64,000 nucleotides of DNA, from positions 1,030-65,029 of the forward strand of contig JAFSPG010000004.1 of assembly GCA_017443025.1 (NCBI GenBank), read 5' to 3'. The position numbers and the translations under genes are program-made. Position 1 is the stretch's first letter. Each line of letters starts with the position of its first letter. Positions 41,731-44,650 of this stretch are shown piece after piece. Under the pieces are notes generated by a model. That model searched no databases and was not told the DNA's origin. It saw only the letters and a list, made by a program, of their open reading frames with translations. The stretch comes from Bacteroidales bacterium. GTDB taxonomy: Bacteria; Bacteroidota; Bacteroidia; Bacteroidales; UBA932.

Positions 41731-41850
41731 TTATAAATTGGTACTGAAATAAAAACTGTGGTCGCCCATGACCGCATGAATGGGAGGGGCCCACGAAGTG
41801 GGAGGGATAGGCCCGAAGGGCCGTAGTTTTTATTCAGTATCAATTTATAA
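41731..41850 (+). repeat. Structured dispersed element, copy 2 (short form)
   Basis: Core 41755-41827 matches copy 1; enclosed by a ~27-bp inverted repeat TTATAAATTGGTACTGAAATAAAAACT / AGTTTTTATTCAGTATCAATTTATAA. Confidence 0.85.
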
Positions 41851-42909
41851 TACATGATTCTCAAGTTTCGATTTGGCGAAGGCGGCGGTGACGTGAACGG
41901 ACTTCTTCTTTGACGAAGGAGCATCGAACATGGCGTCGTCCAGAATCTTCTCGCAGATGGAACGCAGGCCACGGGCACCGAGCTTATTGCTAATGGCAGT
42001 ATCAACAATGATATCCATCGCCTCATCATCCACCTTGAAGGTAATCCCGTCCATCTTGAAAAGCCACTCATACTGTTTCAGAATGGCATTTCTGGGCTCC
42101 GTAAGTATACGCTTCAGGGCGGCCCTGTCGAGCTGGTCGAGATAAGTAATCACCGGCAGACGGCCGATAATCTCAGGAATGAGACCATATGTACGCAAAT
42201 CCTGGGCATTTACATACTGCAGGAGGTTATTCTTGTCGGCCACCGGCTTGTTCGAGGTACCGAAACCAATCACATTGGTATTGAGCCTCTGGGCAATGCT
42301 ACGCTCTATGCCCTCAAAAGCACCGCTGCAAATGAACAGGATGTTCTGAGTATTCACGTGAACGAAAGACTGCTCCGGATGCTTGCGCCCTCCCTTGGGA
42401 GGAACATTCACCACCGTGCCCTCGAGAAGCTTTAGCAAAGCCTGCTGAACGCCCTCGCCGGAGACATCCCTGGTAATCGAAGGATTGTCGCTCTTGCGGG
42501 CAATCTTGTCGATTTCGTCGATGAATACAATACCCTGCTCCGCCATGGCTACATTGTAATCGGCCTGCTCAAGCAGACGGGTCAGGATGCTTTCCACATC
42601 TTCGCCCACATAACCGGCCTCAGTCAGTACCGTAGCATCGACAATCGCAAACGGCACTTCCAGAAGCTTGGCAATGGTCCTGGCAAGGAGAGTCTTTCCG
42701 GTACCGGTAGGGCCGACGAGAAGCACATTCGACTTCTCCAGCTCCACTCCCGACTCCCCTACCAGCTGACTGTTGTGAATCAGGCGCTTATAGTGATTAT
42801 ATACAGCAACAGCGAGCTGTTTCTTAGCCCGCTCCTGCCCAATCACATAGCCGTCGAGATACTTTTTAATATCCTTGGGCGTGTAAATATGGACCTCTTT
42901 ATTTGCCAC
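41845..42909 (-). CDS. clpX: ATP-dependent Clp protease ATPase ClpX, lacking the N-terminal zinc-binding domain
   Basis: [48 protein letters not shown] loop, GARGLR; GTG start at 42909 is inferred (ATG 42933 is the alternative). Confidence 0.92.
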
Positions 42910-43579
42910 TTGCGCGTTTTTTGATGATTTCATCGACCATTCCGTAGTCGAGAGCCTCCTGCGCACTCATCCAGAAGTCGCGGTCGGCGTCGGCGAAGAC
43001 TTTGTCGAAGGGCTGGCCGCTGTGCTCTGAGATGATTTTGTAGAGCTCAGTACGGATTTTGTCGATTTCCTTTGCAGCAATGAGAATATCAGAAGCCTGA
43101 CCCTGTGCGCCGCCGAGAGGCTGATGAATCAGCACTCTGGCGTGCGGAAGGGCGGAACGCTTGCCGTGGGCGCCGGCGCACAGCAGCACCGAGCCCATCG
43201 AGGCGGCCATACCGGTAACGATAGTCTGCACGTCAGGCTCAACCAGCTGCATAGTATCGTATATAGCGAGGCCGGAAGACACCTGACCACCCGGAGTATT
43301 CAGATAAAGCGTAATATCGGCAGAACTGTCCTGGGAGGCCAGGAAAAGCAGCTGAGCCTGGACGATATTTGCAACGTCATCATCAATAGGCACTCCAAGG
43401 AAGATGATTCTGTCCATCATAAGGCGGCTGAACACGTCCATGCTGGCTACGTTCAGCTTGCGCTCCTCGATGATGGTAGGATTGATATATGCATCGAGGG
43501 CGGACTGGTAGCGGTGAAGGGTCGCCGAGGAGATTCCCCTGCCCTTGTTGGCGTATTTGTTGAATTCGTTGCTGTTCAT
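42899..43579 (-). CDS. clpP: ATP-dependent Clp protease proteolytic subunit
   Basis: [21 protein letters not shown](Ser)MG, HQPLGG, DRDFWM. Confidence 0.97.
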
Positions 43580-43582
43580 ATA

Positions 43583-44650
43583 TTAAAGCGCTCTGAATTT
43601 TTCTACTGTAATCTTTTTCTTGCTGATGGTGATGACATCCTTGACGGCGGCTAGAACCTTCTGGTCTTCGACGCCCTCTTCGATCTGACGGCCCTGACGC
43701 TCGTCGGCGAGAACCCTCTGGGCTGCCTCCTTGAGCATATCGGCAGGGACATTGCCGATTCCGTACATTGCATACTGATATGCGACATAGGACTCAGCTG
43801 CCTCCTGGATATCCTTAGCCTCAACCTTGAGCTTATATTCCTTCATGAGGTGCTCACGGACGAGCTGCCAGCGGAAATCCTTGAGGAACATGTCGAATTC
43901 CTTCTCTACGTCCTCTGCGGAGAATTTACCCTCATTTACTTTAATGAGCCAGCGCTTCAGGAAGTCCTCGGGAAGCTGCAGTGCTGCCTTTTCTACCAGA
44001 TACTCGCGGATATCCTTGGAAAGGCGGTAATCGGCCTCCTGTTCATAATTCGAGGTAAGATGCTCTGCGACAGCGGCGTCGAATTCCTTCTCGTCATGCA
44101 CTTTGTCGGGGCCGAAGAGGCGGTCGTAAGCCTCCTTGCCGGGCTCGGCGGGAACAAGTTCCTTCTCGCCCTTATCGTTCTCCTTCATCTCACCGGCCTG
44201 ACGGAGCATATTCTCCTTCATCTCCTTCTTAGCCTTCTCGGTGACATCGATATTGTAAAGGGTAACTTTGTCGTCCTTGGAAAGGGTGAGCGTGATTTCA
44301 GGGGTCTGGGCTACATCGAACTTGAAGGTGAAATCCTTGCCGGATACCCATTCGTTCTCGGGCTGGTCCTCGCTGGCGAGAGGCTCTCCGACCACGCGGA
44401 GCTTGCTCTTCTTGAGGAAATCATTGAGCCCTTCGGAAATGACATCGTTGACGGCCTCGGCCAGTGCCTGCTCGCCGTAAACCCTCTGAATGAGACTCAT
44501 AGGAGCCATTCCCTTGCGGAAGCCCTTGAAATCGGCGGTTCTTCTACGTTCTGAAAGTCTTTTCTTCTCCGCGGGCTGATAATCCTCAGCCTTGATCTCC
44601 ATTGTGACCTGAACGTTAAGGTCATCGATCTGCTTTTTTGTAAGTTTCAT
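43583..44650 (-). CDS. tig: Trigger factor (355 aa, PPIase domain apparently absent)
   Basis: Ribosome-binding GFRKG motif, C-domain LPEDFLKRWL, canonical tig-clpP-clpX synteny. Confidence 0.88.
   Translation of the reverse strand: MKLTKKQIDDLNVQVTMEIKAEDYQPAEKKRLSERRRTADFKGFRKGMAPMSLIQRVYGEQALAEAVNDVISEGLNDFLKKSKLRVVGEPLASEDQPENEWVSGKDFTFKFDVAQTPEITLTLSKDDKVTLYNIDVTEKAKKEMKENMLRQAGEMKENDKGEKELVPAEPGKEAYDRLFGPDKVHDEKEFDAAVAEHLTSNYEQEADYRLSKDIREYLVEKAALQLPEDFLKRWLIKVNEGKFSAEDVEKEFDMFLKDFRWQLVREHLMKEYKLKVEAKDIQEAAESYVAYQYAMYGIGNVPADMLKEAAQRVLADERQGRQIEEGVEDQKVLAAVKDVITISKKKITVEKFRAL

Follow-up and report, generated by a model that had tools for sequence, protein, structure and literature searches.

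The tig locus and its neighbourhood

The window, i.e., the whole 64,000-nucleotide stretch of DNA analysed here, originates from the metagenome-assembled genome (MAG) of a rumen member of the Bacteroidales, which comprises 1.66 Mb in 19 contigs and is 93% complete. On its minus strand, the window carries a tig gene encoding a trigger factor (TF) of only 355 amino acids as an intact open reading frame with zero internal stop codons (Table 1). Directly upstream, ending 17 nt before tig, lies the gene for a 7TM receptor with an intracellular HD hydrolase domain, and this place is conserved in a relative encoding a long TF. Downstream, clpP follows almost immediately, and clpX begins within the 3' end of clpP, with an overlap of about 35 nt when counted from the start codon that yields a 362-aa product (42899-42966, minus strand). 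The gene order gyrB-7TM_HD-tig-clpP-clpX is identical in the window and in the long relative, and the order tig-clpP-clpX is also that found in E. coli. From gyrB to clpX, the minus strand looks like one long, tightly packed operon. Outside the window, contig C19 of genome G000 (133883-134023) contains a stretch of 47 residues that matches the C-terminus of the CLP_protease family and has an in-frame TAG, which is probably a clpP fragment or pseudogene.

Table 1 Features of the tig region, with positions counted from the first nucleotide of the window
Feature	Position	Strand	Evidence
clpX, 362 aa, without N-terminal C4 zinc-binding domain	41845..42933	-	AAA_2 + ClpB_D2-small
clpP, starts 3 nt past tig stop	42899..43579	-	CLP_protease, E 1e-76
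tig, headless trigger factor, 355 aa	43583..44650	-	ORF, Pfam, NCBIfam, single copy, AlphaFold2
C-terminal arm (chaperone) domain of TF, residues 167-355	43586..44152	-	precomputed PF28539 TF_C
Deletion junction, residues 153-166 (G-EMKE-NDKGE-KELV)	44153..44194	-	alignments, AlphaFold2
Peptide across the deletion junction, ..GEMKENDKGEKELVPAE..
N-terminal ribosome-binding domain of TF, residues 1-147	44210..44650	-	Trigger_N, E 5.4e-31, profile positions 1-143 of 144
TF signature GFRKGMAP, residues 43-50 (GFRxGxxP ribosome-docking motif)	44501..44524	-	translation
7TM receptor with intracellular HD hydrolase (7TMR-HDED + HD), 674 aa	44668-46692	-

Domain composition of the trigger factor

Two of the three domains of a canonical TF were detected in the protein. 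The N-terminal part is covered by Trigger_N (PF05697) almost over the entire length of the model and contains the GFRxGxxP motif as defined in PMC11559001, of which residues G43, F44, R45, G47 and P50 are invariant in an alignment of the window TF with its relatives. The C-terminal arm is recognized by TF_C (PF28539) and by Foldseek matches to 1w26, 2vrh and 3gty; AlphaFold2 predicts it as all-helical, with helices between residues 187 and 337 and pLDDT values of 85-95. The older Trigger_C model (PF05698) matches weakly (E 0.12). No Pfam FKBP family matched the protein even at E<=1, so that nothing corresponding to the middle peptidyl-prolyl isomerase (PPIase) domain, the head, was found. The same picture emerges from the precomputed assignments of a newer Pfam version, which list Trigger_N and TF_C for the window protein and Trigger_N, FKBP-like_TF (PF28537) and TF_C for relatives of 437-438 aa. 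With the equivalog model TIGR00115 the protein reaches 140.4 bits in two stretches and falls short of the cut-off of 180.2 bits because the middle domain is missing. As TFs of this type score below the cut-off, annotation may mis-name them.

The source genome contains a single Trigger_N gene. The headless tig is therefore the sole copy, which rules out that it is a paralogue. A free-standing head encoded by a split gene was ruled out as well, because a head-domain profile built from the relatives had zero matches across the 93% complete genome. By its N domain, its C domain, its single copy and its synteny, the window protein is the Tig orthologue, and the conserved motif together with the fold suggests that it would still dock at the ribosome (uL23) and act as a chaperone on nascent chains. 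An earlier note on this DNA had described an intact 355-aa frame, identified the product as a TF from its N domain with the GFRKG motif and proposed that an FKBP domain is absent. All three claims hold, with the addition that the gene resides on the minus strand, which the note had left unstated.

Deletion junction and predicted structure

In a large protein collection, the closest relatives of the window TF are a 99%-identical cluster of 355-aa proteins and P0002, a protein of 357 aa with 79% identity. These are followed by hundreds of proteins with 437-438 aa, starting with P0003 (79% identity in the search). P0003, with 437 aa, is the nearest full-length relative and is 82% identical to the window TF on shared columns; compared with it, the window protein shows a net in-frame loss of 82 aa. 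When aligned with ten long relatives, the window TF exhibits one clean gap of ~82 residues between ..GEMKENDKGE and KELVPAE... It reads ..NMLRQAGEMKE-NDKGE-KELVPAEPGKEAYDRLFG.. where P0003 has ~87 residues between SLQD and RTFV. The junction coordinates given in the earlier note (near 44153-44194) translate into residues 153-166.

The AlphaFold2 model of the window TF (pLDDT 87.3, pTM 0.73) consists of the N domain and the helical arms, and the best Foldseek matches in the PDB are the TFs from E. coli and T. maritima (1w26_A, E 6e-13, TMq 0.64). At the junction, strands E154-157 and E163-166 (pLDDT about 80) are predicted to form a small hairpin, in which a 5-residue turn connects the two linker strands that bear the head of the long relatives. 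In the model for P0003, a well-predicted beta-rich domain (~158-244) sits between strand E154-157 and the end of E236-248. This model matches the isolated PPIase domain of E. coli TF (1l1p) and SlyD (4odr), while the short model does not. Since the extra domain of P0003 is bounded by the same two strands that meet in the window protein, the deletion took exactly one structural domain at its borders. The DNA alignment of the junction with a long relative (~77% identity) revealed no repeats able to cause a collapse of the assembly. Possibly, CGATAAGGGCGAGAAG is left over from the first hairpin of the head (DNGEK), and this would point to two deletions; in this GA-rich sequence, such a resemblance is indistinguishable from chance.

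Nature of the lost domain

The canonical FKBP_C family did not match P0003, P0055 or the tig products of four genomes with long TFs. In E. coli TF, I195 and H222 are conserved and important for catalysis, and the TF-deltaPPD variant is devoid of prolyl-limited foldase activity (PMC6166725). In the heads of Bacteroidales TFs, the positions of E. coli F177, F185, I195, F198, Y221 and H222 are unconserved: those aligned to I195, F198, Y221 and H222 read gap/D, A, V/I and K/S/N, respectively, and the E. coli loop GRMIPGFEDG is replaced by RNVEG(K/D)AHAKF. Two independent alignments underlie these assignments, a profile alignment to E. coli TF and one made with MAFFT that includes five other families of the Bacteroidales; at ~15% identity, the assignments are provisional. 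With the same reservation regarding the low identity, the heads of the long relatives present neither an FKBP_C domain nor the catalytic residues that together characterize a catalytic FKBP-type PPIase. The residue pattern thus suggests that the Bacteroidales head was probably already a non-catalytic client-binding module before it was lost. The source genome retains five other FKBP_C genes, the same number as long-TF relatives. The wording of the earlier note, which regarded the PPIase (FKBP) domain as excised, therefore needs to be amended: the middle domain is indeed gone, but what was lost is a divergent FKBP-like head and probably not an active isomerase.

Occurrence of headless trigger factors

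According to contig titles, the relatives belong to the genus Candidatus Cryptobacteroides, represented by MAGs from rumen, gut and faeces. We examined an evenly sampled set of 401 species genomes of this genus. A tig gene is present in 381 of them and a strong match to the head profile in 258 of these, and it follows that ~123/381 (32%) are headless. In the subset of 180 high-quality genomes, 177 have tig and 126 match the head profile (E<=0.01, strong and weak matches combined). The headless form is thus common within the genus of the source organism, in ~32% of species, and it is also recurrent there (see below), neither of which had been part of the earlier note. It is not the norm for the order, because the long form occurs in 24 of 24 other families of the Bacteroidales. 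Across the phylum, 143 out of 145 high-quality genomes have tig frames of at least 425 aa, the two exceptions being the source genome and G502, a genome described further below.

The other headless TFs of the genus have 328-342 aa and are ~50% identical to the window TF. They comprise one large clade and lack a longer stretch including the linker VPAE..YDRLFG..DKV, while the window group (355-357 aa) keeps VPAE..YDRLFG. All of 80 further headless genomes of the genus encode the ~329-aa type of the large clade, and no additional independent head losses were found among them. Within this clade, tig does not adjoin clpP-clpX in 27 of the 28 loci examined (L024-L051), in contrast to the long-TF species and the window. 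In G063, an apparent ClpX fragment without zinc-binding domain is encoded directly beside tig. Genome size shows a weak trend with head loss (median 2.30 versus 2.58 Mb, p 0.045, uncorrected, n=35).

ClpX and the trigger factor head

The ClpX protein encoded in the window departs from the canonical form. The zinc-binding domain zf-C4_ClpX (PF06689) is absent from both the gene and the genome and there is no CxxC pair, while the AAA+ core, Walker A, the GYVG pore loop and the IGF loop are all retained. A CxxC..CxxC domain is present in ClpX from long-TF relatives and from other families, and PF06689 was found in 252 of the 401 genus genomes. Among the 381 genomes with tig, 247 encode both the TF head and the ClpX zinc-binding domain, 118 encode neither, 11 have the head only and five the zinc-binding domain only, leaving 16 discordant cases. 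Note that absence of the zinc-binding domain combines two states. In G141, G275, G016 and G220, ClpX is present without the domain, whereas, in the large headless clade, both clpX and clpP are missing from several near-complete genomes (G184, 95% complete in five contigs, G003 and others). In a basal headless clade (G344, G203, G272), clpP is present and no clpX match was obtained at E<=1e-60. Head loss thus tracks the erosion of ClpX and ClpXP, but the association is not significant after allowing for phylogeny: only three independent contrasts are available and the sign test remains non-significant.

The sequence of events in the window lineage could be followed in more detail. The locus of P0003 (L019) encodes a full TF next to a 336-aa ClpX without zinc-binding domain. 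In the ClpX tree, the proteins from the window and from L019 form a clade with a starred value of 100 on a long stem, inside a clade of domain-bearing ClpX proteins with a starred value of 95; apart from the window lineage, the backbone of this tree is poorly supported. Locus and tree together indicate that in the window lineage the zinc-binding domain of ClpX was lost before the head of TF. Locus L124 (G340, contig C91) contains a divergent ClpX-like gene (48% identity, 376-aa frame) without zinc-binding domain and with extreme branch length, which may not be an orthologue.

A loss of both modules would fit the partnership published for E. coli, where TF is an adaptor for ClpXP and contacts the zinc-binding domain of ClpX with its arm 2 and with the hinge that connects the PPIase and arm domains; the exchanges L226A, K239A and E241A, located in the head or hinge region, eliminate the effect (Rizzolo et al. 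2021, PMC7804408). One could therefore imagine that head loss is functionally coupled to ClpX, i.e., that a non-catalytic head is kept mainly for adaptor cooperation with the zinc-binding domain and that loss of one partner frees the other. Besides the published contact, the distribution of both modules over the genus, the early disappearance of the zinc-binding domain in the window lineage and the lack of both clp genes in several near-complete headless genomes speak in favour of this idea. Still, we consider it rather doubtful. Apart from the small number of independent contrasts, G502, G281 and G022 have no TF head but a ClpX whose zinc-binding domain is intact, in the case of G281 even in the same operon, and conversely the head is still present in G220 and in the P0003 lineage together with a ClpX lacking the domain. 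The order of the two losses varies between lineages, and a shared cause, for example reductive evolution in one clade, explains the co-distribution equally well.

Selection on the gene and reliability of the assembly

Rather than a functional gene, the headless tig could represent a decaying one that acquired the deletion recently, as a step towards complete loss. The small size of the genome and the erosion of proteostasis genes nearby, i.e., a ClpX without zinc-binding domain and relatives without any ClpXP, might be taken as hints in this direction. However, between the window tig and that of P0002, dN/dS amounts to 0.12 across a synonymous distance (dS) of 1.08 since the headless lineages split. 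The gene is free of frameshifts and stops, the ribosome-binding motif is invariant, the model is of high confidence, and tig is kept in nearly all high-quality genomes of the genus, with all headless ones included. Decay is thus a very improbable explanation. The dS value of 2.2 to the long P0003 gene is larger than that between the headless pair, in agreement with a tree placing the window protein and P0002 as sisters.

That a collapse or mis-joining during assembly or binning dropped the domain from a gene that is full length in reality is a concern for any window taken from a MAG of 19 contigs, and the earlier note had itself named a collapse at the junction as a possible pitfall. Here, such an artefact is extremely unlikely. 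Two pipelines (ENA submitters and Logan) independently recovered the identical window tig, on at least 12 contigs that derive from at least five samples. Five loci fetched from five samples showed zero nucleotide differences across the 1068-nt gene and had the same neighbours; the five samples seem to stem from a single study and to carry an identical strain. The second headless lineage, represented by the 79%-identical P0002, originates from another study and an unrelated run and has the same architecture. Furthermore, headless genes occur in about 120 other species of the genus, and the junction is free of collapse-prone repeats. We thus state that the window tig is a real gene maintained by selection.

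Independent losses and direction of change

Phylogenetic trees for TF were calculated on columns of the N and C domains only; they are unrooted and their backbone is weak. The window protein and P0002 together are sister to the long P0003 in a clade with a starred value of 99 that is nested among long forms. This pair stands apart from both the large headless clade (25 to 38 rows) and the basal headless clade (3 to 5 rows). In AU tests, a common clade of all headless forms was rejected (p 0.002), as was the union of the window pair with the large clade (p 0.007). ClpP and ClpX of the window are 80-87% and 73-80% identical, respectively, to their counterparts in long-TF genomes, compared with 71% and 72% for a genome of the large clade. 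Trees, AU tests and these identities together lead us to conclude that the head was lost independently at least twice, and probably three times, within Candidatus Cryptobacteroides: the best tree shows three losses, while the starred branches alone force only two. G502, a genome of 4.0 Mb from another family of the same class, encodes an independent headless TF of 366 aa (..VRYGKVTNEEEVKEGKEPITEKAVLNQELFDKIYG..), and downstream of its tig lie clpP and a clpX gene whose product keeps the zinc-binding domain (L090 555-1655, L091 571-1803). This is a further head loss, outside the genus.

The reverse scenario, an ancestral short form into which the head was inserted, finds a foothold in parsimony counts, which on an unrooted tree cannot separate gain from loss, but is rejected by the outgroups and can practically be dismissed, because the head occupies the homologous position in E. 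coli, in all 24 further families of the order and in 143 of the 145 genomes from the phylum, and because the window pair is nested deep inside the long forms.

Discussion

Bacteria possess one chaperone that binds to the ribosome, trigger factor, and to our knowledge its three-domain plan is treated as universal. The module formed by the N and C domains is the chaperone core of the protein, and the PPIase domain can be deleted in laboratory work. Kramer in 2004, Genevaux in 2004, Merz in 2006 and Gupta in 2010 are said to have found that E. coli TF consisting of N and C domains supports growth and chaperoning and delays folding less. Searches of the full-text literature did not turn up any natural housekeeping TF of bacteria that lacks the head. 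The tig gene in the window very probably encodes just that: the cell's single housekeeping TF in a natural headless form, which, as the earlier note had suspected, arose by in-frame deletion of the middle domain.

The deletion would have occurred in the common ancestor of the window species and the P0002 lineage, after the split from the lineage with the 437-aa TF. It would have removed the FKBP-like head as a whole (net 82 aa) and left a short turn between the two antiparallel linker strands. The resulting protein is predicted to dock at the ribosome exit via its GFRxGxxP loop and to cradle nascent chains between the N domain and the C-terminal arms, and it would do so without the additional client-binding site of the head and without any contribution from prolyl isomerization. 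Such a loss may have been tolerated because the head was probably non-catalytic already, because the five other FKBP genes are present and because the N and C domains constitute the chaperone core.

With canonical TFs (E. coli Tig; 1w26, 2vrh; TIGR00115), the window protein shares the N domain with GFRxGxxP, the arm domain, the single gene copy and the tig-clpP-clpX arrangement. It differs in lacking the middle FKBP/PPIase domain, in having 355 instead of about 432 aa and in scoring below the equivalog cut-off. Its closest match in architecture is provided by the engineered E. coli variants TF-NC and TF-deltaPPD, in which the head was cut out between the linker strands at nearly the same borders. 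Unlike these, the window TF is natural, fixed in a lineage and under purifying selection. Furthermore, whereas the laboratory TF-deltaPPD loses prolyl-limited foldase activity (PMC6166725), the ancestral head in Cryptobacteroides probably had none to lose. Within the genus, the large headless clade (328-342 aa) lacks the same domain and likewise possesses headless TF as the sole tig product, but the deletion in the window lineage is a separate event, is smaller and left the linker in place, and the proteins share only ~50% identity.

Other known cases also illustrate the modularity of TF, with domains lost or kept separately. Plant Tig2 (PMC11731035) consists of the N domain only, TF paralogues of Myxococcus (PMC11559001) lack the N domain, and MPN555 from Mycoplasma (PDB 1zxj) is a TF relative resembling the C domain. 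These proteins are additional paralogues or are missing one of the core modules, that for ribosome binding or the arms, whereas the only TF encoded in the source genome retains both and lacks just the head.

Nature has repeated a cut made in the laboratory at the same borders, the product has been kept under selection, and this has happened recurrently in one genus of gut and rumen bacteria. The availability of relatives with and without head that are up to 82% identical would allow clean comparative biochemistry of the role of the head on the ribosome. The co-distribution with the loss of the ClpX domain or of ClpXP offers an evolutionary handle on the recently proposed cooperation between TF and ClpXP. 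If the two modules were indeed coupled, some lineages would proceed to lose ClpXP altogether once both are gone, and the genus would constitute a natural deletion series, with ~250 species retaining both modules, ~120 having neither and intermediates in both orders, which could be used to test whether TF-assisted degradation by ClpXP is a general, selectable function.
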